A stretch of DNA of 64,000 bases, taken from the IMG/VR virus record IMGVR_UViG_3300027734_003164, positions 152,576-216,575 of that record, one strand, 5' to 3'. The translations under genes were made by a program, and so were the position numbers. Origin of the DNA: a virus. Its lineage: Duplodnaviria > Caudoviricetes. The notes under the pieces are model-generated. The model was given only the letters and a program-made list of their open reading frames with translations. It made no database searches and was not told the origin of the DNA. This document shows, piece by piece, positions 3,445 to 64,000 of the stretch (position 1 is its first letter; every line of letters starts with the position of its first letter).

Positions 3445-4566
3445 ATGGCAACTACTGTAATTATCACCGAACCTGAAAGAAGTAAATTATATAAAAGAAT
3501 AAAAAATCTTTTAGGTGCCCCTATTCGTAGTGTTGAATTAGAAGATGAAATGATGGATTCATTATTAGAATTATCTATTCAGGATTACGCACAACATGTA
3601 AACGATTGGTTGATTGAGGCTCAATGGTCTTCTTTGAATGGTTTGAATTTAGATGAGCAATCACTAACAAGAGCCTTTACTACAAGAAGTATGGATTGGG
3701 AAACACAATATACTTACGCGTATTCAAAAATTGTGGGATTACAAGCTGGTGGTGATTATGTATTGAAAAAAGATTATATCGATTTAGTTTCTAATCAACA
3801 AATATATGAAATACCTGCAGGTCGCGAAGTTAATGAAATATTATGGTTTTCTCGTTCTGAATTAGACGCAGCATATTTTGACCCGTTTATGGGTGGATTT
3901 GGTGGATTTGGCGGTATTGGTTTAGGCGGTGGGGCAGGATTTTCTCAAATGGGGACAACAGGAAATTATTTTATTACACCAGCCTTTGATATTTTACTTA
4001 GAATGGCTGACATTCAAATGAAAAGAAGAATCATAACAGGAGATTTGACTTATAGAATAACAGCACTTCCTGAAGGAAAAAAAGCATTACATTTAATGAA
4101 TGTACCTGGTGGAAAATTTGATTTTGGAAATATTGCTTATCAAAAATACAAAGTATGGTATTGGTATTATGATACTTTTGATAGAGATGATTGTTTAGCG
4201 AAAAATCCTGACGTTGTTAGACTTCCTTCTGACGTTCCAATTGATGAAATGAGATGGGATGAATTAAATTCACCAGCAAAAACTTGGGTTAGAAGATGGT
4301 TTACTGCGTATTGTAAAGAAACTTTGGCAAAAGTAAGAGGTAAGTATAGTGGTAGTTTGAAGACCCCTGATAGTGAATTAACCTTAGAGTGGCAAAGTTT
4401 AAACACTGAAGCTAAAGATGAAAAGACAATGTTGTGGGAAGAATTGAAAGCAAGACTTGAAAGATTAAGACCTGAAAAACAAATGGAGCAAAAAGCCTTA
4501 CAGGCCGAAAACTTGAACAAAGCCTTGAAATTTAGAGCATTTACAAGTCCTTATAATATCATATAA
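3445..4566 (+). CDS. Probable neck protein (T4 gp13-like)
   Basis: N-terminus RIKNLLGAPIRSVELEDEMMD resembles the gp13-family LG.P...VE motif. C-terminal WVRRW..A..KETL.KVRGKY. Late motif upstream. Confidence 0.6.
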   Translation: MATTVIITEPERSKLYKRIKNLLGAPIRSVELEDEMMDSLLELSIQDYAQHVNDWLIEAQWSSLNGLNLDEQSLTRAFTTRSMDWETQYTYAYSKIVGLQAGGDYVLKKDYIDLVSNQQIYEIPAGREVNEILWFSRSELDAAYFDPFMGGFGGFGGIGLGGGAGFSQMGTTGNYFITPAFDILLRMADIQMKRRIITGDLTYRITALPEGKKALHLMNVPGGKFDFGNIAYQKYKVWYWYYDTFDRDDCLAKNPDVVRLPSDVPIDEMRWDELNSPAKTWVRRWFTAYCKETLAKVRGKYSGSLKTPDSELTLEWQSLNTEAKDEKTMLWEELKARLERLRPEKQMEQKALQAENLNKALKFRAFTSPYNII

Positions 4567-4906: not shown

Positions 4907-7731
4907 TCGAAACTAAGAGCCATTAAATCCCCATCCACATCAAATTCAAAGTATTCATCAATATCCACCTTTTTTTGTTGTACGACAAACTCTTCCATTA
5001 ACTTTTTGTTGTTTTCAACCCAATCAACATCCACTAAATCAACAGTACCATCTAAATACATATAGTAAGGGTCAATACCTACGTTTTTCCAAAACGTTAA
5101 TTCCATGTCAGATAAAGTTAATACTTCCTCTAATGTATCTTGATGAGCCTCTTTCATTGGGTAACCGCGTACTAATTCAGTTTGAGACTTAGTAAAGATA
5201 GGTCTATCTTTTGGGTCTTCAATTAAAATGTCTTCTCTGATTTCAGGTCTATAAACAACAAGTAATGGTTCGATTCTTTTGTTAAATGCTGCCAAATATC
5301 TTGGAACATTATACTCACCCAATAAATCAGGATTCATTTCAATATCACGTTCATCAATCATATAACAATTCAAAACCAATTCATCTTTTTTCTTTTGAAC
5401 GTCTCCATGTGATTTTTTCTCACCATTATTAACATAGAAGATAGTATCACCAAGACCTGGATTTTTACCTTCTTTAATCAAAAGTTCCATATGCGCCTGA
5501 CGGGACATCATATTTCCTGCCTTTGTAGTTTTAGTAATGTGAACTTTGTAATCGTCTATTGATTGTTTTACCCGAGCTTTGTTTGCAATTTTTGCCAAAG
5601 GGATTTGTCTATTATAAAGTTTGTCCACATATTCATAGTAAAAATCTAAAAACTCACCACCCTTACCGTCTAACAACATTCTAAGCCCCTTATCCAAAAA
5701 TTCAGCAACATATGTTTGAAGTTTTTTAGATTTAATACTATTTCCTGTAAGTTTTACTTTACCCTTATCTGTAAGAAGTGCATAGTTTTTACGAGCCACA
5801 TTAATTGTTGATGGCCAAACACCGTCAATATCCAATCCCATTTCACCTCGTAAAAATAAATCATTGTATTCTGCAACATCCGCTTCTGCTCCAATATATT
5901 CCTTACCTTCTTTAACCAATCCGTTCAACCCCTTTCCAATATACTTATACTCTTCTCTATCTTGTGGTGTTTCGAAGTTTACACCATCCGTATCCATTAC
6001 GAGAGGAACATAACCTCTTTTCATAAAGAACATAATCATTTGACGTAGGTATTGTCTACCTGTACAAGTAATCTGTTCACCCATATCAATATCACCCCAC
6101 GGAAAAACTTGTGGTGCTGATAATGAACCAAAGAATGCGTTGATAAAGATTTTAATTGGTAATTGTTTTCTGTCGTAAGAAATCGCAAGTTTTGGGTCAA
6201 TAGATTTATATTCACTTGATAAGTTCTTGTATTTAATACGAGTATCACGGAAATACTTTAACATACTTTTCATTGCTCCTGTTACGTCACATTTAGGGAA
6301 TACGTCGTGAACCAACTGAATAGATGGGTATAGTGAAGAGTAGTCAAGTTTCAATACGTTTTTAGAGAACCCAACCTGTACTAAACGAGAAAGACCTCCT
6401 GTAAATTTTCTTTTTTCTAATTTTCTTGGTAATGCTAAGTTATGTTTATATGACCATGCTGCCATAATCATTTTCCATAATGTTGCAGTTCCCATAGTTG
6501 AAAGTCTTTCATATGTTGTTGGTACAAGTTTAGACAATAAGAAGTTTGCTTGATTAAACTGTTCATCAACTATCATCGTTTCATAAAGGTCATCGTCCAA
6601 GTAGTCCTCAATAATTTTTGAACCTGTAACTAATTTATAAACATCATCTCTTCTTTTACATATTTCATCTATTTTTGAATCAAATCCAACTTTCTTATAT
6701 GCTCCGTTTTCTTTGTTCATCCAATATTCAAGATTATCAAAATAAATTTTACCAATCTTATCCCCTTCAACATAAACACGATTTGGTTTTTCTGCTTCAA
6801 TAAACTTGGTAATATACTTCAAAGACCAACTTTTAATGTCTGAGTTGATTGCTTGAGCTCTACGAACCGCATGAGCAATATCAACAATATTATATCCCCA
6901 CATTTGAGTTTGAACGTATGGTTCCATTTCGTTCGCCAACTTTAGAATACCATCTTTTTGTTTTAGTGTATAATCAGGATGTAAGGTCTTGCAGATTTTT
7001 TTGATATTAACTTTTAATATTTCAGCTCTTTTTAGAATAAATGGGAAGTCAAAGAATGCTGAGTTGTAACCCCCAATCAAAGATGGTTTTAACTCATCAA
7101 TAGTCTTAAAGAAGTCGACAATCATTTGTCGTTCTTCATCTTCATTTTGTGCAGATAATAATTTTAGAAAACCACGATTGTCTTTCATCCCAATCAAGAA
7201 TATCTTACTTGTTTTAGGGTCAAGACCTGTGGTCTCAATATCGAATACAAACCTGTGGATTTCATCGTATTCGTCAAAACCTTTGAATAGTCTTTTACTT
7301 TTTTGAATTAAGTATTGTTCTACGGGTGATAATATTTGAATTGAATCTGTGTTGTCTCTACCCCATGGGTCTAATCCTCCACCTTTAAAGAAGTTTACAA
7401 GATTGGAGTATGACTTTGTTGTTTTAACCAAATACCTCAATCCGTTCTCTAAACGTTCATCATCGTGAGTATCAAGTTTTTCTATGATAATACCATTTTC
7501 ACTCATCGCACGTTTTTGTGCGTGTTTGTCGTTCTTGTAAAAGTTTTTACCTTTCAAGTCGCCAACCCAAGCAAATGGAATAAATGTGTCGGGGCGTAAT
7601 AATTTACCCTTAACAGGGTCTTGGATTACTTTATAAATTTTAGATGATTTGTAATCGTATTCGAGTGATACGATATATTTTTCGTCGTCTTCGCCTAATA
7701 AAAAGCGTTCAATTTCTTCTTGTGGAACCAT
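4903..7731 (-). CDS. polB: Family B DNA polymerase
   Basis: ExoI FDIET, region II DYSSLYPS, region III KIFINAFFG, region I MDTDG. 942 aa, no intein motifs seen. Confidence 0.95.
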   Translation of the reverse strand: MVPQEEIERFLLGEDDEKYIVSLEYDYKSSKIYKVIQDPVKGKLLRPDTFIPFAWVGDLKGKNFYKNDKHAQKRAMSENGIIIEKLDTHDDERLENGLRYLVKTTKSYSNLVNFFKGGGLDPWGRDNTDSIQILSPVEQYLIQKSKRLFKGFDEYDEIHRFVFDIETTGLDPKTSKIFLIGMKDNRGFLKLLSAQNEDEERQMIVDFFKTIDELKPSLIGGYNSAFFDFPFILKRAEILKVNIKKICKTLHPDYTLKQKDGILKLANEMEPYVQTQMWGYNIVDIAHAVRRAQAINSDIKSWSLKYITKFIEAEKPNRVYVEGDKIGKIYFDNLEYWMNKENGAYKKVGFDSKIDEICKRRDDVYKLVTGSKIIEDYLDDDLYETMIVDEQFNQANFLLSKLVPTTYERLSTMGTATLWKMIMAAWSYKHNLALPRKLEKRKFTGGLSRLVQVGFSKNVLKLDYSSLYPSIQLVHDVFPKCDVTGAMKSMLKYFRDTRIKYKNLSSEYKSIDPKLAISYDRKQLPIKIFINAFFGSLSAPQVFPWGDIDMGEQITCTGRQYLRQMIMFFMKRGYVPLVMDTDGVNFETPQDREEYKYIGKGLNGLVKEGKEYIGAEADVAEYNDLFLRGEMGLDIDGVWPSTINVARKNYALLTDKGKVKLTGNSIKSKKLQTYVAEFLDKGLRMLLDGKGGEFLDFYYEYVDKLYNRQIPLAKIANKARVKQSIDDYKVHITKTTKAGNMMSRQAHMELLIKEGKNPGLGDTIFYVNNGEKKSHGDVQKKKDELVLNCYMIDERDIEMNPDLLGEYNVPRYLAAFNKRIEPLLVVYRPEIREDILIEDPKDRPIFTKSQTELVRGYPMKEAHQDTLEEVLTLSDMELTFWKNVGIDPYYMYLDGTVDLVDVDWVENNKKLMEEFVVQQKKVDIDEYFEFDVDGDLMALSFD

Positions 7732-7794
7732 ATTTTATATTATTAATTTTGGGTTATTATTCTCACAAACTATGTTGTGGTTTCCCTTTTTTAA

Positions 7795-7826
7795 TAAATA
7801 TAAAAATGTCTTGTCTTAATGTCAAA
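7795..7826 (-). promoter_or_regulatory. Housekeeping-sigma promoter for polB
   Basis: Minus strand TTTGACA-N17-TATATTTA, also readable as TTTG-N20-TAnnTTTA. Confidence 0.6.
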
Positions 7827-55571: not shown

Positions 55572-55971
55572 TTAGCATCAAATTTTTTTCCCAATTTAAT
55601 ACGACATCTCTTTCGTATAATTTACTTTCAACATTTTCAATACTTTCTCCGTATTGAAAAACTAATCGTTTCTTTTTATATACAATTATTTCATCCGAAT
55701 CCGACTTTTCCCATCCTAATGAAATAACACCATCAACGGCATCATAAACACAAAAAAAGTCTGAATTTTGAACTAATTCTAATTCTATATCTGAGTTTTT
55801 TAAAATACCAACTTTTTTAATAAATTCAATTTTTGGTGGTTGTGGTCGTCCAGATGCTGGCTCAATATCCCAATCTTCACCATATGCGTCATCAATATCT
55901 GAAAAAATAAATTCATAGATATTGTCTCCTCTAAAGTTTGGACCTAACTCATTTATATAAATCAAATTCAT
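55552..55971 (-). CDS. Hypothetical protein
   Basis: 139-aa ORF in the late operon. Confidence 0.7.
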   Translation of the reverse strand: MNLIYINELGPNFRGDNIYEFIFSDIDDAYGEDWDIEPASGRPQPPKIEFIKKVGILKNSDIELELVQNSDFFCVYDAVDGVISLGWEKSDSDEIIVYKKKRLVFQYGESIENVESKLYERDVVLNWEKNLMLNETHEL

Positions 55972-57311
55972 ATAATGTTTCCTCTTGTGTCTATTTTAAT
56001 TTGTTTACCTTTTTTATTAAAAATTAAATTATCTAAATTTGTTTTACCTACAAATTGTGCTCCTTCAGATAAAAGTCTATTTGCTCTTTCCAACTGACGA
56101 CTAGTTTCTGATAAATTTTGTAACTCTTGTTTTACTTTTATCTGTGTTAATTTGTTTTTAATATAATCTTTTTGTTTTTTTTCTTCTAAAATTGGAGCTT
56201 CTTCTTTTGTTACTACAAAATATTTTTTCAAAACATTTTCAACTCTTGATTCTCCAAAAACATTTTCTGTTGGTTCTTGTGGTGTTGGTTCTTCACCACC
56301 CATAGGTGCTCCTCCCATTGGTTCTGCTCCAAATTCCTCACCTCCAAACTCATCACCACCAAAATTGACATCTTCTTCACCACTAAAATCTAAACTTTCA
56401 GGACCTTCATCACCGTACATATCAATTTCTTCAAATTTAGATAAAATGTCTTCTTTATCATCCTCGTCCAACTTTTCTAAATCTAAAGCCGATAAAACCA
56501 TGTTTATAACATATTTAATATCCTGTGAATCCAATCCGTCTTCATCTTGATTGTTATATGCTCTTAATTTTTGTGATAATTTACCTGTAAGTCTTTGGAT
56601 AGTTTTGAAACCACCGCCTTCTTCAGACTCTCCTCCCATTGGTTCTCCGCCCATTGGTTCTCCTCCCATTGGTTCTCCACCCATAGGCTCACCACCCATT
56701 GGTTCACCTCCCATTGGTTCTCCACCCATCATTTCACCTCCCATTGGTTCTCCACCCATCATTTCATCACCCATAGGCTCACCACCCATTGGTTCTCCAC
56801 CCATCATTTCTCCACCTTCTTCAGGTGCTGGTGGTGCAGGAGTTTCTTCAGGAGCAGGTGATGCTTCAGGTGCGGGTGCAGGAGCGGGTGCCGCGTCAGG
56901 TGTTGGTTCCGTTGCGGGTTTAGGCGTTTTTAAAACGAATTTTTTTTTTGAAGCGGTTTGCTCGCCAATTAAAGGAATCTCCTCGTCATTCTCATGAATG
57001 CGATTTAATTCTTTAGCGTGAAGATTCAACTTTTTCATCGCCTGAGAATACGAATCAAAATATTTTCTTTGTCTAATTGGGTCTGAATAATCTAAAACAG
57101 ATTCATTAATCCCTTTTTTAATTATATAACCTAACTTTTCTTTAACAATACCGTAAGTGTAACCATCAGCTAATTGAATGGTATAGTTCAAAGTTTCGTT
57201 TTCGTTAAGTTGTGATTTTGGTTTTTCATTATAATGCGCAATTTCTAAGATACGTCTAATTTTGTCCATACCTTCTAATTTTTCACTTCCAAGTGGTTTC
57301 AAATCTGCCAT
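55968..57311 (-). CDS. Acidic Pro/Gly/Met-rich probable head/core protein
   Basis: 447 aa, GGEPM repeats, several xxE sites, late motif upstream. Confidence 0.65.
   Translation of the reverse strand: MADLKPLGSEKLEGMDKIRRILEIAHYNEKPKSQLNENETLNYTIQLADGYTYGIVKEKLGYIIKKGINESVLDYSDPIRQRKYFDSYSQAMKKLNLHAKELNRIHENDEEIPLIGEQTASKKKFVLKTPKPATEPTPDAAPAPAPAPEASPAPEETPAPPAPEEGGEMMGGEPMGGEPMGDEMMGGEPMGGEMMGGEPMGGEPMGGEPMGGEPMGGEPMGGEPMGGESEEGGGFKTIQRLTGKLSQKLRAYNNQDEDGLDSQDIKYVINMVLSALDLEKLDEDDKEDILSKFEEIDMYGDEGPESLDFSGEEDVNFGGDEFGGEEFGAEPMGGAPMGGEEPTPQEPTENVFGESRVENVLKKYFVVTKEEAPILEEKKQKDYIKNKLTQIKVKQELQNLSETSRQLERANRLLSEGAQFVGKTNLDNLIFNKKGKQIKIDTRGNII
56628..56816 (-). repeat. 15-bp tandem repeat encoding GGEPM/GGEMM (about 12 copies)
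   Basis: ccacccattggttct-type units in the DNA; GGEPM runs in the translation. Confidence 0.9.
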
Positions 57312-57404: not shown

Positions 57405-58178
57405 TTATTCAATATTTAAGTTTTCTAATGATAATTTTTTATCAGTAATCTTGTTTTTGAAGTCTTCAAGTTTTTTTATATATCCCGTTCTTCTTAAAAA
57501 CTTAAACACCAAATTTTCATATGAATACTCACCTTCTTTTGTTAATCCACAAGTTCTGTATTTTCTTAACTTTTCTTTGTATTTCTTAACAAGGTCAATG
57601 GCGTCTTTTAAATCTTCATCTTCTGCGTTTTCCAAAACACCATCTATTATATCCATCCATTGTTGGGCTTTTTCTTTAATTTTTTTCTCATCAACTTCAA
57701 AATTTTCTTTTTCTGGTTTTCTAATCCATGTATCAGAAACCAAAGAATAAGACCCCATACTTTTCTCTTTTTCGTTTGAGTCTTGAATAAAAACCTCAAC
57801 TTCATAACCTTTAATTCTAATGTCATGAGATGCGTTAAACAATGTTTTTTTTAGGTGAAAAAGTTCTTCATATAATTCTTTATTTTCACCAGCCTCATTA
57901 AAATCATATAATAAATGAACGTCAAAGTCAGAAAACTCAGACCAATTATAACCAGTTAAAGAACCAATTAGTATAATGTCTTGAATAAAAATGTCTTGGT
58001 CGATTGTTTTTAAAAAAACGTCAGCAACTTGTAAAAGTTTTTTTCTAATTTCAGGTTTTAATTTATAGAATTGGGCGTCTTTGTCACCCATATATTTTTC
58101 ATTGGGTAATTCCCAAACTTCGGGATTAAGTTTGTCTTGTAAATAAAAGCTATTTATAACTTTTTTAAATTCCTTCAT
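57405..58178 (-). CDS. Pol-beta superfamily nucleotidyltransferase
   Basis: IILIGSLTGYNWSEFSDFDVH (GS..DxD) and a third acidic residue in YEVEVF. Start placed at ATG 58178, 3 nt after TATTTATT, which avoids overlap with KTSC. Confidence 0.8.
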   Translation of the reverse strand: MKEFKKVINSFYLQDKLNPEVWELPNEKYMGDKDAQFYKLKPEIRKKLLQVADVFLKTIDQDIFIQDIILIGSLTGYNWSEFSDFDVHLLYDFNEAGENKELYEELFHLKKTLFNASHDIRIKGYEVEVFIQDSNEKEKSMGSYSLVSDTWIRKPEKENFEVDEKKIKEKAQQWMDIIDGVLENAEDEDLKDAIDLVKKYKEKLRKYRTCGLTKEGEYSYENLVFKFLRRTGYIKKLEDFKNKITDKKLSLENLNIE

Positions 58179-58206
58179 ATTAATAAATACATTATCAATA
58201 TGATTT

Positions 58207-58449
58207 TCAAAGTTTTTTGTATTTGAATTTTTTTGATATGTTTTGATTGAAATATTTTCCTTGAGAATCTGATAATCTAAATTGAGAATATATTGAATGG
58301 GGGACTTCTTCATATTCATATAACATTTCATTGTTGAAAGTTATTTTTAATGTTTTATTTTCAATATCATACTCACTTCTTTTTAAATTAGAAGATGTTA
58401 TTTCACAAATAATTTTGTTTCCTTCTATGTCTGTTCTAGTTATTGCCAT
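58207..58449 (-). CDS. KTSC-domain protein
   Basis: SSNL...YD...L.ITF....YEY..VP...Y..F..S.S.GKYFNQNI. Confidence 0.9.
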   Translation of the reverse strand: MAITRTDIEGNKIICEITSSNLKRSEYDIENKTLKITFNNEMLYEYEEVPHSIYSQFRLSDSQGKYFNQNISKKFKYKKL

Positions 58450-58764: not shown

Positions 58765-58788
58765 AAAAATCCACCCGAAGGTGGATTT
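58765..58788 (-). terminator. Intrinsic terminator after the UVR gene
   Basis: AAATCCACC-TTCG-GGTGGATTT followed by Ts on the minus strand (cUUCGg tetraloop). Confidence 0.9.
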
Positions 58789-58790
58789 AA

Positions 58791-59153
58791 TTATTTGAGA
58801 GAATTAATCTTATCACGATATTGTATCGCCCTTTCAAAGTCTTGGTTTCGAATACATTCGCCCAACTTAAACTTTAACTTTGATAGCTCTTCTTTGTTCT
58901 TTTCTAACTTTTTAATTTCATCTCTTAAATTTACTGCTTCTTCAAAATTTTCTTCTTTAATTGCCAAGCTTAATTTTTCTTTCAATACATATAATTCATC
59001 TGACGGACTTGTATTGTTAAAATTTCTTGTCATATAAGACATAGAATACAAACCATCTGGCGAACTATAAGTATTTTTAGTCCAGTTTTTATCATCAAAT
59101 GATGAAGAAAAAAATTCATTAAATAATTTATCAAATTCGTTCCAATTAAACAT
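58791..59153 (-). CDS. Double UVR (UvrB/C coiled-coil) motif protein
   Basis: LKEKLSLAIKEENFEEAVNLRDEI and LKFKLGECIRNQDFERAIQYRDKI. Confidence 0.85.
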   Translation of the reverse strand: MFNWNEFDKLFNEFFSSSFDDKNWTKNTYSSPDGLYSMSYMTRNFNNTSPSDELYVLKEKLSLAIKEENFEEAVNLRDEIKKLEKNKEELSKLKFKLGECIRNQDFERAIQYRDKINSLK

Positions 59154-59219: not shown

Positions 59220-59274
59220 TGACAAAATGTCAGTATAATCAAAATATTTAATAAATCAAACTGACAATATGACA
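59220..59274. promoter_or_regulatory. Pair of putative operator/UAS sites
   Basis: Palindrome TGACA-AAA-TGTCA (59220-59232) and near-copy TGACA-ATA-TGACA (59262-59274), 42 bp apart. Confidence 0.55.
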
Positions 59275-59322: not shown

Positions 59323-61359
59323 ATGATTGAATCAGCAGACAACAACGAAAAAGACAAAGGAAAAAAAACTGAAACCGCGGGTAAAACACCCGTGTTGGAT
59401 AATTTTTCAAGAGACTTAATAAAAGCCGCGGAAGAGGGTAAGTTGGACCCTATTATTGGAAGAGAACAAGAAATTAATAGGATTGCACAAATTCTATCAA
59501 GAAGGAAAAAAAATAACCCAATTATTATTGGTGAACCAGGTTGTGGAAAAACTGCAATTGTAGAAGGATTGGCCAAAAAAATATTTGAGGGTGATTGTCC
59601 TCAGAATTTAGTTAGTAAAAGAATAGTTTCTTTAGATTTAAATTCTGTGGTTGCAGGAACAAAGTATAGAGGTCAGTTTGAAGAAAGAATGAAAGTTATA
59701 ATTGAAGAATTATATGCAAATCCTGACATAATTATTTTTATAGATGAAATCCATACTATGATTGGTGCTGGAAACGCATCGGGTTCCATGGATGCGTCAA
59801 ATATATTTAAACCCGCATTGTCAAGAGGAGAAATTCAATGTATTGGGGCAACAACATTAGAAGAATATAGAAAAAATATTGAAAAAGATGGGGCACTTGA
59901 AAGAAGGTTTCAAAAAATTGTTGTAGACCCATCAACTAAAGAAGAAACTTTAGAAATACTAAAACAATCCAAAGACCGTTACGAAAAACACCATAAAGTT
60001 AGATATAGTGAAGATATTTTAAAACTATGTGTTGAATTGGCCGATAGATATATTACCGACAGAGAATTTCCCGACAAGGCGTTTGATATACTTGATGAGG
60101 TTGGGGCAAGAAGTCAGGTGGAAATCAAATTACCTGAATCTATTGAAAAATTAAAAAAAGAAGCTCAAGAAATAAAAGAACAAAAAATAGAAGTTATTAA
60201 TAAACAAAAGTATGAAGAGGCTGCAAATTTAAGAGATAGAGAAAGAAAAGTTTTATCAGAACTTCAAAAAGAAAAGGAAGATTTTGAAAAAAACAGAGAC
60301 CTTTACCGAAAAGAAGTTACAGAAGAAATTGTTTATGATGTTACTTCTTTGATGACAAAAATTCCTATTAATAAAATTACCACCGATGAATCAATTCAAT
60401 TAGCATCATTAAATGAAGTATTAAATACAAGAGTAATTGGTCAAAATGAAGCGGTTTCCAAAATTGCAAGAGCAATACAAAGAAATAAAGTTGGTTTAAA
60501 TGACCCAAAAAAACCAATATTTAGTGGATTATTAATTGGTAATTCAGGTGTTGGTAAAACTGAATTGGCAAAACAGTTGGCAAAACATATGTTTAATAGT
60601 GAAGACGCACTTATTAGATTGGATATGAGTGAATTTTCAGATAAAATAGCAACATCAAAATTAACAGGGACATCACCAGGATATGTTGGGTATGAAGACG
60701 GTTCACCATTTTTGAACAAAATTAAAAACAAACCTTATTCTGTTATTTTATTGGATGAAATAGAAAAGGCTCACCCAGAAATTTTTAATGTATTTTTACA
60801 AATGTTAGATGAAGGGTTTTTAACAGATGGTCACGGTAGAAAAATTAACTTTAAAAATTGTATTATTCTTATGACATCAAATGTTGGAACAAGAGTGGTT
60901 CAACAATTTGGTACAGGTGTTGGGTTCTCAACATCACATAAAGAAGAAACAAAAGATGAAGAAATAAAATCTTTATTGGAAAAAGAACTTTTCAAAAAGT
61001 TTGCACCTGAGTTTATCAACAGATTTGATGATATTGTATACTTTAAAGACTTGAATGACAATGATTTGATGAAAATTTTGAATTTAGAACTTGAAAAATT
61101 ATATACAAGAGTTTCTAACCTTGAATTTAATGTTGAAGTTGATGAATCACTAAAAAATCACTTAATTAAAGTGGGTACTGATACTAGATTTGGAGCTCGT
61201 ATTTTGAAAAGAACGGTTCAAAAGTGGGTAGATGATGCAATTACGGAAAAAATACTTTCAGACAAACCAGAAAAAAACTCCACATTCTTACTGTCGTATG
61301 ATGAAAAAAATAATAAAACAGAAGTTAAAATAAAAAAACCAACAAAACGAAAGAAATAA
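59323..61359 (+). CDS. clpC: ClpC-type AAA+ unfoldase lacking the N-terminal domain
   Basis: Walker A GEPGCGKT and GNSGVGKT, Walker B FIDEIH and LLDEIEK, pore loops KYRG and GYVG, UVR middle domain, ClpP-docking VGF loop. Confidence 0.92.
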   Translation: MIESADNNEKDKGKKTETAGKTPVLDNFSRDLIKAAEEGKLDPIIGREQEINRIAQILSRRKKNNPIIIGEPGCGKTAIVEGLAKKIFEGDCPQNLVSKRIVSLDLNSVVAGTKYRGQFEERMKVIIEELYANPDIIIFIDEIHTMIGAGNASGSMDASNIFKPALSRGEIQCIGATTLEEYRKNIEKDGALERRFQKIVVDPSTKEETLEILKQSKDRYEKHHKVRYSEDILKLCVELADRYITDREFPDKAFDILDEVGARSQVEIKLPESIEKLKKEAQEIKEQKIEVINKQKYEEAANLRDRERKVLSELQKEKEDFEKNRDLYRKEVTEEIVYDVTSLMTKIPINKITTDESIQLASLNEVLNTRVIGQNEAVSKIARAIQRNKVGLNDPKKPIFSGLLIGNSGVGKTELAKQLAKHMFNSEDALIRLDMSEFSDKIATSKLTGTSPGYVGYEDGSPFLNKIKNKPYSVILLDEIEKAHPEIFNVFLQMLDEGFLTDGHGRKINFKNCIILMTSNVGTRVVQQFGTGVGFSTSHKEETKDEEIKSLLEKELFKKFAPEFINRFDDIVYFKDLNDNDLMKILNLELEKLYTRVSNLEFNVEVDESLKNHLIKVGTDTRFGARILKRTVQKWVDDAITEKILSDKPEKNSTFLLSYDEKNNKTEVKIKKPTKRKK

Positions 61360-61405: not shown

Positions 61406-62467
61406 ATGAACCTACAAAAATTCAAAGAACTCCTTTCAGTACCATCGAAAACATATCAAGAAGAAGATATGGTAGAACATATTTGTGATGAGTTGGAAAA
61501 AATTCATGGAGTTACGTTTTATCGTGACAATATGATGAACATATATGCAACAAAGGGGATATTAGAAGAAGGTGAATTTTATCCCATGTTTATTGCTCAC
61601 ACTGATACGGTTCACAACAAAATAGATAAGATTATTGTTAAAGAAGAAAAATTAAAACGACCACACACTTTTGGTAAAAATTTTGACGATACTCTTGTTG
61701 ACGTATTAAAAGCATACGACGTTAATAATTTACCAACAGGTATTGGGGGTGATGACAAATGTGGCATTTTTATTTGTTTAGAATTACTTAAACAATTAGA
61801 CAAAGTAAAAATTGGTTTATTTGTGAGTGAAGAAACAGGTTGTCACGGTTCATCAAAATGTGATGAAACTTTTTTGCAAGATGTAGGTTATATCACACAA
61901 TACGATGCTCCTGGCAACCATTTAATTACCGAGATTTGCTCAGGTGTTCGTTTATTTGAACGGGATAGTGAATTTTTTACAAAAACATCAAAAGTTATTA
62001 CCGAATCTTTTGGAAATGAAATGTTAGTTCAATCACACCCTTATACTGATATTTCACAGTTAAAGAAAAAAATTGATGTATCTTGCATCAACATGTCTTG
62101 TGGTTATTACAATATGCATTCACCACAAGAGTTCATTTCGATTGAAGATGTGAAATGTGCAATTGAAGCAGGAAAAAATATGGTTAAAGAGTTGGGTCAT
62201 AAAAAATATGAATATCAATATAAACCAATAGTTTATACACCAACAACAATCATGAACTCATTTGCGGAAGGGTTTGATGATGATTTAGATTTTTTTGAAG
62301 TACAAGAAATAGAAAGTCATCATCGTTTACAAACTATTGACGTATATGAGGAAAAAGACGGAATCACACTAACCGATGTTTATGATGATGGGTTTATGTT
62401 TATCCCTGATGAGGATTTAGAAAATTTGTATGAAATTATTAAAGAAAGATTAATTAAAAAATATTAA
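61406..62467 (+). CDS. Zn-dependent peptidase, M20/M28/M42 clan
   Basis: AHTDTV, GGDDKCG, SEETG, QYDAP, GYYNMHS ligand set. Confidence 0.85.
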   Translation: MNLQKFKELLSVPSKTYQEEDMVEHICDELEKIHGVTFYRDNMMNIYATKGILEEGEFYPMFIAHTDTVHNKIDKIIVKEEKLKRPHTFGKNFDDTLVDVLKAYDVNNLPTGIGGDDKCGIFICLELLKQLDKVKIGLFVSEETGCHGSSKCDETFLQDVGYITQYDAPGNHLITEICSGVRLFERDSEFFTKTSKVITESFGNEMLVQSHPYTDISQLKKKIDVSCINMSCGYYNMHSPQEFISIEDVKCAIEAGKNMVKELGHKKYEYQYKPIVYTPTTIMNSFAEGFDDDLDFFEVQEIESHHRLQTIDVYEEKDGITLTDVYDDGFMFIPDEDLENLYEIIKERLIKKY

Positions 62468-63692: not shown

Positions 63693-64000
63693 GGGCCTAT
63701 ATTGGAATTGACGGGCGTTGGTTGAATAAAAGAAGCATGTCGGGACTGAATTAATCTCGTTAAAAACTGATTCAAAAAACAACTGGCAATGTGCTAAACA
63801 ACCTTGAGACTTTGGGACTTATCTCAACTCAAGAAGTTACTGTAGCTTAATTAAGATACGGAAACGGGGGGTCGGCAGACATATAACCTAGCAACAGAAG
63901 TCGTAGTTGTGGTGGATTACTATTGAACCCTAAATCGAATGGTAACCATTGGTTGTTGATTTACGATGGTGAAGAACAAATCAACTATTTTGGAATATTA
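63693..64000 (+). ncRNA. ssrA: tmRNA (3' end beyond the window)
   Basis: 5' GGGCCTA..TTGGAATTGACGGG; conserved GCATGTCGGG; pseudoknot PK1 (CGGGA/TCTCG, TGAATTA/TGATTCA); resume context ACAACT-GGC; tag ORF 63785-63850. Confidence 0.92.

Follow-up and report, generated by a model that had tools for sequence, protein, structure and literature searches.

The tailed-phage DNA described here encodes a ClpC-type double AAA+ unfoldase that lacks the N-terminal Clp_N domain (hereafter an N-less ClpC). The DNA is a stretch of 64,000 nucleotides, positions 152,576 to 216,575 of the IMG/VR record IMGVR_UViG_3300027734_003164 (Duplodnaviria; Caudoviricetes), which as a whole is called the window. The gene, clpC, occupies positions 59323-61359 on its plus strand and specifies 678 amino acids (aa). 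Judged from its sequence, the protein is a complete ClpC core with both ATPase rings, the pore loops, the middle domain, and the docking loop. The gene is conserved across a very abundant lineage of freshwater phages of roughly 280-290 kb.

A ClpC core without its N-domain

The start of clpC is the first start codon after an in-frame stop, and 21 residues lie ahead of the TPVLDNFSRDL motif of the first nucleotide-binding domain (NBD1). An earlier reading made from the letters alone (the sequence-only reading) had counted about 22, and had proposed that Clp_N is absent while the UVR middle domain and the VGF loop are kept. Pfam assigns AAA to residues 67-197, AAA_lid_9 to 205-305, AAA_2 to 397-571, and ClpB_D2-small to 577-654, and finds no match to Clp_N in the 678-aa protein. 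In phmmer searches of the PDB, residues 149-805 of Staphylococcus aureus ClpC align colinearly with phage residues 11-668, with no large gaps (E 1e-196), and residues 151-797 of Bacillus subtilis ClpC do likewise. The phage protein thus corresponds to ClpC minus about 148 N-terminal residues, and it shares with these two proteins (PDB 6em8/6em9 and 3j3s) the same core, colinear over 658 residues, at about 46% identity to staphylococcal ClpC (tblastn). The 21-residue, Lys-rich tail that remains (59323-59385, plus strand) aligns with the linker between the N-domain and NBD1 of cellular ClpC, and in the translations of relatives it begins with a conserved MIES(A/F)D.

The functional motifs of the core are all recovered by alignment. 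The Walker A motif of NBD1, GEPGCGKT (59530-59553, plus strand; residues 70-77), has Cys74 instead of the usual Val, and that of the second nucleotide-binding domain (NBD2) is GNSGVGKT (60538-60561, plus strand; residues 406-413). The Walker B motifs IDEIH and LDEIEKAH, the pore loops YRGQFEER and GYVGY, and the GAR sensor motif are conserved. The middle domain, with a UVR-type motif at 60154-60252 (plus strand; residues 278-310), is of the short, single coiled-coil ClpC type and aligns without gaps to its ClpC counterpart. Its PF02151 score of 19.3 bits is just short of the 21.5-bit cut-off, and a 99%-identical allele reaches 22 bits. The PDB alignment and invariant alignment columns place Tyr297 (60211-60213) at the position of S. 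aureus F436, and Arg304 at that of R443. The VGF tripeptide (60919-60927, plus strand; residues 533-535), the predicted ClpP-docking loop, aligns with the AGF loop of S. aureus ClpC, and its Gly534 is invariant in the lineage alignment. Both the middle domain and the loop are therefore present, as the sequence-only reading had stated.

The AAA+ modules, the short middle domain, and a loop of the form [LIVA]GF are all those of ClpC, a class I Hsp100 protein that in bacteria makes up an adaptor-dependent protease with ClpP, and Clp_N is the family feature that was not found. Other Clp identities were considered and rejected. Matches to ClpB break into two stretches around the middle domain, the NCBIfam ClpB model scores 747 bits against a cut-off of 1232, and the protein has a VGF loop. 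The same loop speaks against ClpL, and the ClpL-type chain 6lsy scores far below ClpC. ClpE is rejected since the 21 residues before NBD1 hold no Cys/His pattern of a zinc finger.

The missing domain is not hidden nearby. The gene before clpC (58791-59153) runs in the other direction, and the 169 bp between the two genes are too few to hold a frameshifted N-domain. All six reading frames of the 64-kb window were also searched with a profile of 69 N-domains from cellular ClpCs, to which held-out cellular ClpCs match at 70-112 bits; no such domain was found (best E 0.24, 6.7 bits). Pfam likewise found no Clp_N in five related viral records, two of which are near-complete according to CheckV (99%, 292 kb, and 96%, 281 kb). 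The absence of Clp_N claimed in the sequence-only reading thus holds at the level of the protein, the window and the relatives, and a domain displaced upstream by a frameshift or sequencing error was not found. In mycobacteria, ClpC2 consists of the N-domain only, showing that N-domain and motor can be separate genes (PMC10030653). It represents the opposite half of ClpC, and no N-domain-only gene was found in the window or in the five related records.

The truncated form is also the form that is maintained. There are 417 related stretches in IMG/VR, and the window stretch was found in lake and freshwater metagenomes from 17 studies. At 85-100% identity, each of the 120 best protein clusters has a length of 678-682 aa, and Clp_N occurs in none of them. 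The ratio of non-synonymous to synonymous substitution rates (dN/dS) of clpC against relatives is 0.04-0.18, and the gene is under strong purifying selection. For practical purposes we can dismiss the idea that clpC is a pseudogene, or an artefact of truncation or frameshift in a full-length gene: many studies have yielded the same 678-682 aa form, on hundreds of independent contigs, the gene upstream points away from clpC, and dN/dS is far under 1.

N-less ClpC in phages and in cells

The window is phage DNA, encoding a major head protein, a portal, a large terminase, a DNA polymerase, and a helicase, with a G+C content of 23-35%. The record closest to it is an IMG/VR fragment of 53 kb, whose clpC copy is 99% identical. 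A megablast search of 24 kb of the window gave no match among GenBank phages. By description, the lineage fits the moraphages, which are mostly freshwater phages of Bacteroidota with genomes of 200-307 kb (PMC12619734). The size (about 281-292 kb), the lake origin, the presence of clpC and a peptidase gene, and the DnaK found in some relatives all agree, in a comparison made by description only. The 26 core orthologous groups of moraphages include a Clp ATPase, which appears only in a table, and a putative peptidase; DnaK was found in eight genomes, and DnaK, DnaJ, and Hsp20 are reported (PMC12619734). In the literature searched, no N-less phage ClpC is described, which is not proof of absence.

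The closest cellular relatives are the ClpCs of Bacteroidota, with 51-55% identity over the core (best matches, in contigs of one genome per species). In all 78 complete cellular open reading frames, the TPVLD motif comes after 155 or more residues. In Bacteroidota ClpC (P0146 and loci of Flavobacterium, Pedobacter, and Aquirufa), 155-290 residues including Clp_N precede NBD1, as against 21 in the phage. Beyond 50% difference, the nearest representatives have 825-870 aa and a Clp_N domain; the closest of them, P0146, adjoins gyrA, a cellular context. In a Bacteroidota sample, an orthologue is present in 198 of 201 genomes, and among the matches listed from it, 149 of 150 lie in frames of 837-923 aa. 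The one apparent cellular N-less ClpC, a 700-aa frame (G047), was rejected, being cut by the end of its 2730-nt contig. Ordinary N-less ClpCs in cellular Bacteroidota, which would have made the phage form unremarkable, were thus not found in the sample. One cellular N-less ClpC of 676 aa (P0200) does occur outside Bacteroidota, in an mcsA-mcsB-clpC operon (L090, 5474-9031) of the metagenome-assembled genome GCA_024402405.1. Its place after mcsA and mcsB is odd, because it is the N-domain that reads the phospho-arginine marks made by McsB.

N-less ClpCs are also encoded by other large phages. Those of the complete genomes LR756502 (642 kb), LR745206 (635 kb), and LR756508 (484 kb) have 707, 701, and 657 aa, respectively; they start just before NBD1, with both the GF loop and the middle-domain motif retained, and no Clp_N was found anywhere in the three genomes. 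They have the usual Val in Walker A, where the window lineage has Cys. Unlike the window's relatives, in which none was found, these huge phages have ClpP genes of their own, with three, two, and one ClpP matches, respectively, an argument for joint use of ClpP and the N-less form. Each of the two 640-kb phages has two strong ClpP copies, to which LR756502 adds a third, partial match, and LR756508 has one weaker copy.

Among the 150 nearest representatives, 13 are N-less, and the context is informative for four of these, three phage-like (P0240, P0181, and P0249) and one cellular. On P0249, ClpP is encoded two genes (about 550 nt) upstream of the N-less clpC. Three further N-less representatives (P0270, P0251, and P0291) come from contigs whose short length does not allow phage and cell to be distinguished. 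The wider pattern, with N-less ClpCs on several phage lineages, some with ClpPs of their own, was missed by the sequence-only reading.

In a maximum-likelihood tree, the two 640-kb phages have their ClpCs inside the Bacteroidota ClpC group (supports 97 and 99). LR756508 falls elsewhere, together with P0240, and the window lineage forms a long branch of its own outside Bacteroidota ClpC. The tree suggests, without proving it, that the N-domain may have been lost repeatedly in large phages. In large phages, ClpC seems usually to be N-less, and phages seem to run the ClpC motor free of host control. Among cultured phages, the best family match is the 'ATP-dependent protease' family phrog_4871 of PHROG (E 3.5e-222), whose profile has 764 positions. 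The window ClpC matches only from position 158, so the model of this family includes the N-terminal part that is missing from the window protein.

Control of the motor and its possible partner peptidase

In S. aureus and B. subtilis, the Clp_N domain of ClpC binds MecA, the phospho-arginine made by McsB, and cyclic peptides, and stabilises the resting state; the phage protein is without it. The consequences of such a loss were recently described for S. aureus ClpC, in which the N-domain anchors a helical resting state (Jenne et al. 2025, PMC12583610). The truncated protein, deltaN-ClpC, assembles into planar hexamers and, in contrast to the wild type, binds ClpP. These rings are joined head-to-head via their middle domains, forming rods with ClpP, and are proteolytically silent because of this remaining pairing (PMC12583610). 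The variant deltaN-ClpC-F436A degrades SsrA-tagged green fluorescent protein (GFP-SsrA) as well as MecA-activated wild type does, and is the most toxic of the variants; the ssrA tag is read by the pore and not by the N-domain (PMC12583610). The engineered deltaN-ClpC and the phage protein have the same architecture, a short linker tail followed by a core with an intact middle domain. The former is a laboratory truncation, whereas the latter is a natural and selected form, at 46% identity, and is known here from sequence alone.

By analogy with S. aureus deltaN-ClpC, the phage protein would not be held in a helical resting state, nor would it be steered by N-domain-directed adaptors or phospho-arginine marks. 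Its planar hexamers would assemble and dock unaided onto ClpP, in this case that of the host, and would choose their substrates through the pore, as unstructured tails or ssrA-like tags. With the middle domain and its Tyr297 still in place, pairing of the head-to-head kind probably remains as the one brake on the motor. We therefore read the protein as a working phage ClpC that acts independently of adaptors, docks on host ClpP, and uses the middle domain as its remaining brake, and we give this reading as a whole about an even chance of being right.

The sequence-only reading had called the protein a deregulated or differently regulated unfoldase. Control through the N-domain is indeed gone, but the middle-domain brake with Tyr297 is kept, and deltaN-ClpC, which has the equivalent brake, is silent (PMC12583610). 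This partly supports the second wording, a ClpC that would be differently regulated rather than simply deregulated. The same reading had suggested that host ClpP may be hijacked. No ClpP was found in the five related viral records, including the near-complete 99% and 96% genomes, in a search for which the Bacteroidota control was positive. Given that Bacteroidota have ClpP, the peptidase would have to be that of the host, and with the VGF tripeptide kept, use of host ClpP is a reasonable inference.

Several points weigh against this interpretation. The case for docking on host ClpP consists only of a kept tripeptide and of the absence of ClpP in relatives, and that absence was read from relatives and not from the complete genome of the window's own phage, where ClpP could be encoded elsewhere. 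The behaviour of S. aureus deltaN-ClpC may not transfer to the phage protein. The cellular P0200 means that N-domain loss is not exclusive to phages. In the approximately unbiased test, a tree with the window lineage and the 640-kb phages as one clade is not rejected (p 0.36), so the N-domain losses of the two may not be independent. The double-UVR protein encoded upstream of clpC, which could act on the brake (see below), is missing in about 40% of related loci and so is not an obligate partner.

A possible but not probable alternative is that the protein is a stand-alone unfoldase or disaggregase which, like ClpL, works without a peptidase. Beside the other chaperones of the lineage, it would remodel or rescue proteins of the phage or the host while the very large virion is being assembled. 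The lack of a detected ClpP in the near-complete relatives is in line with this, as is a full DnaK directly upstream of clpC in 11 related loci. Similar freshwater phages have DnaK, DnaJ, and Hsp20, and a Clp ATPase among their core genes (PMC12619734). ClpL also resembles the phage ClpC in having no Clp_N, its rings pair through a middle-domain aromatic residue homologous to F436, and the ring dimers of deltaN-ClpC are similar to those of ClpL (PMC12583610). However, the VGF docking loop is conserved across the lineage, with Gly534 invariant, and other phages with an N-less ClpC carry ClpP, once only two genes upstream. The stand-alone members ClpB and ClpL have no ClpP-docking loop, and ClpL has a short N-domain of its own, whereas the phage protein has VGF and its best matches are ClpCs.

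The unfoldase might instead feed the metallopeptidase of the M42/M20 kind that is encoded 46 nt downstream of clpC on the same strand (61406-62467; 353 aa; weak Pfam matches to M42 and M20; phrog_4191 peptidase, E 1e-35), so that the two would make up a phage-private pair. We consider this improbable. No terminator-like site was found between the two genes, the peptidase is beside clpC in nearly all related loci, with the linkage kept even where cargo sits between them, and both belong to the moraphage core genes (PMC12619734). Yet a 640-kb phage with an N-less ClpC has glycosyltransferase-like genes downstream instead, and the VGF loop is a docking element specific for ClpP. We know of no AAA+ partner of the M42/M20 peptidase clan, which also counts against such a pair.

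Still less probable is a poison subunit that mixes into host ClpC rings or caps host ClpP, and so blocks or misdirects ClpCP. The ClpP loop is kept, and there is a phage precedent in SPO1 Gp53, described as an adaptor-like modulator of B. subtilis ClpCP, a complex that phages thus target (PMC6873191). Gp53 works on the host ClpC, whereas the window phage brings its own motor. The ATPase motifs of the phage protein are all under strong purifying selection, which would be needless for a mere blocker, and its identity to Bacteroidota ClpC is only 51-55%. At this identity, the mixed hexamers with host ClpC envisaged in the sequence-only reading find nothing in their support.

The clpC neighbourhood and its wider meaning

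The genes around clpC include a conserved core: p447, p308, a gene for a KTSC-domain protein, clpC, the M42/M20-like peptidase gene, p381, and then a transfer-messenger RNA (tmRNA) gene. Between the KTSC gene and clpC lies a slot that is variable in content. In the window it holds the gene of the double-UVR protein (58791-59153, minus strand; 120 aa), which is divergent from clpC and has two UVR motifs (PF02151, E 2.8e-18, in two stretches). In 73 readable related loci, the slot is occupied by the double-UVR protein (118-166 aa) in 42 and by DnaK (616-618 aa) in 11, with the remainder, including a 99%-complete genome, having neither. The DnaK genes are also divergent from clpC (L002 2468-4324, minus; L003 3965-5821, minus; and nine more loci; HSP70 866 bits), and the intergenic region between the slot gene and clpC is about 170-180 bp. 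The two never occur together in the 73 loci, which are related, so that their exclusivity is no clean statistic. Both states of the slot are found among alleles with a 99%-identical clpC (the window as compared with L002-L004). A tRNA-Gly(UCC) gene is present in the slot of L008 and L077 (3777-3862).

The double-UVR family comprises about 25 clusters, all within this phage lineage, and its motifs resemble the middle-domain motif of ClpC, as any UVR motif does. Its relatives are named McsA by the Joint Genome Institute (JGI). This identity was rejected: the NCBIfam McsA model scores 44 bits against a cut-off of 210, and on the UVR part only, the protein has a single Cys and no zinc fingers, and no mcsB neighbour was seen in the window. 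An AlphaFold2 model of the protein has a predicted local distance difference test score (pLDDT) of 70, and a fold search of this model against the PDB gave no match at E <= 0.001. The weak rows of that search include the ClpC middle-domain chains 9goq_g and 9qcl_B (E 0.4-1.5), which were not used as evidence. A complex predicted for ClpC residues 200-350 and the double-UVR protein scores 0.16, relative to a mark of 0.32, and speaks neither for nor against binding.

The divergent promoter region contains an operator-like palindrome, TGACA-AAA-TGTCA (59220-59232), with a degenerate second copy at 59262-59274. The palindrome is conserved in loci with the double-UVR protein or DnaK and absent where the slot is empty (L014). 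The 13-nt sequence has one exact occurrence in the window, and its 17-nt conserved core has no other match there at three or fewer mismatches. A bidirectional terminator-like hairpin (58767-58788) lies just after the double-UVR gene. A scan for sigma-70-type promoters found 30, no better than the 31.9 expected from shuffled sequences.

Downstream, the tmRNA gene (63693-64000, plus strand; Rfam RF00023, E 1.3e-10) begins 2.3 kb from clpC, and its 3' end is cut by the end of the window, which is why ARAGORN finds no tmRNA in the window itself. ARAGORN finds the whole gene at the same place in the relatives L002, L008, and L077, and gives the tag, in a provisional reading, as only ATE(E/Q)VTVA in L002 (8859-9244) and L008 (10314-10718). 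Contigs from RNA libraries (two metatranscriptomes) touch clpC, the double-UVR gene, and the peptidase gene at low depth and the tmRNA more deeply, with DNA carry-over possible. This cover was read from Logan contigs, which give no strand, ends, or expression level, and the uncovered parts carry no meaning.

Further upstream, p447 (55968-57311, minus strand) specifies 447 aa, including acidic tracts and a long stretch of GGEPM/GGEMM repeats; the protein has no family match, and all relatives have kept it upstream of the clpC block. The gene p308 (57405-58331, minus strand; 308 aa) has a nucleotidyltransferase-like GS...DxD motif and belongs to phrog_36119, of unknown function. It is overlapped by the gene of the 80-aa KTSC-domain protein (58207-58449, minus strand), and both are conserved beside clpC. 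Hot spots of variable cargo were seen on both flanks of clpC (L017, L023-L027, L033-L037, L042, L044, L047-L050, L054-L057, and L061-L076). One family of proteins of 97-540 aa recurs there 76 times, often with a small gene on the opposite strand; its 540-aa representative is without a Pfam match. Genes of the DUF2927, CAP-domain, and rhomboid-like kinds were seen in the flanks as well.

In some relatives, clpC looks as if it were split by a naturally split intein within the Walker A motif of NBD1. Piece 1 ends in GEPG followed by about 24 residues, beginning with CVLGDTWIE, and a stop; piece 2 starts with about 135 residues ending in VVSHN, followed by CGKT and the remaining ClpC. Such alleles are found in L066 (6001-6294 and 6324-8543; the same in L068 and L070), in L071, L073, and L079 (6001-8496), and, at 4094-4315 and 6001-7812, in L065 and L069 (a 96%-complete genome), where the halves are about 1.7 kb apart. 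The window allele is uninterrupted, and its Cys74 (GEPGCGKT) is the +1 residue of the insertion site in the relatives. In the other lineages P0151, P0203, P0188, and P0217, matches likewise begin at residues 74-77.

The neighbours allow two speculative extensions. The middle-domain brake may be a target of the double-UVR protein or, in other strains, of DnaK, and proteins tagged by the phage tmRNA may be preferred substrates of ClpC. In the fullest form of this idea, shedding of the N-domain would be a general rule for phage ClpC, reached more than once, and neither host adaptors nor the resting state would then constrain the motor. The window lineage would have added a private circuit, in which the tmRNA writes a phage-specific tag, the N-less ClpC reads it through the pore and feeds host ClpP, and the double-UVR protein, as a mimic of the middle domain (or DnaK elsewhere), releases the brake. 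We regard this combined proposal as doubtful.

In bacteria, ClpC is kept off by its N-domain and middle domain, and its release is lethal, which makes it an antibiotic target. The phage protein is a natural, abundant, and selected counterpart of a laboratory truncation that was characterised only recently (2025). It opens the questions of what an unfoldase is used for beyond the reach of host adaptors, whether host ClpP is commandeered, and how substrates are chosen without an N-domain. For annotators, it means that 'ClpC' labels on viral contigs conceal a distinct architecture. With the double-UVR protein or DnaK, the peptidase, the tmRNA, and the apparent split intein of relatives, the locus is a compact test bed for the control of host proteolysis by phages.

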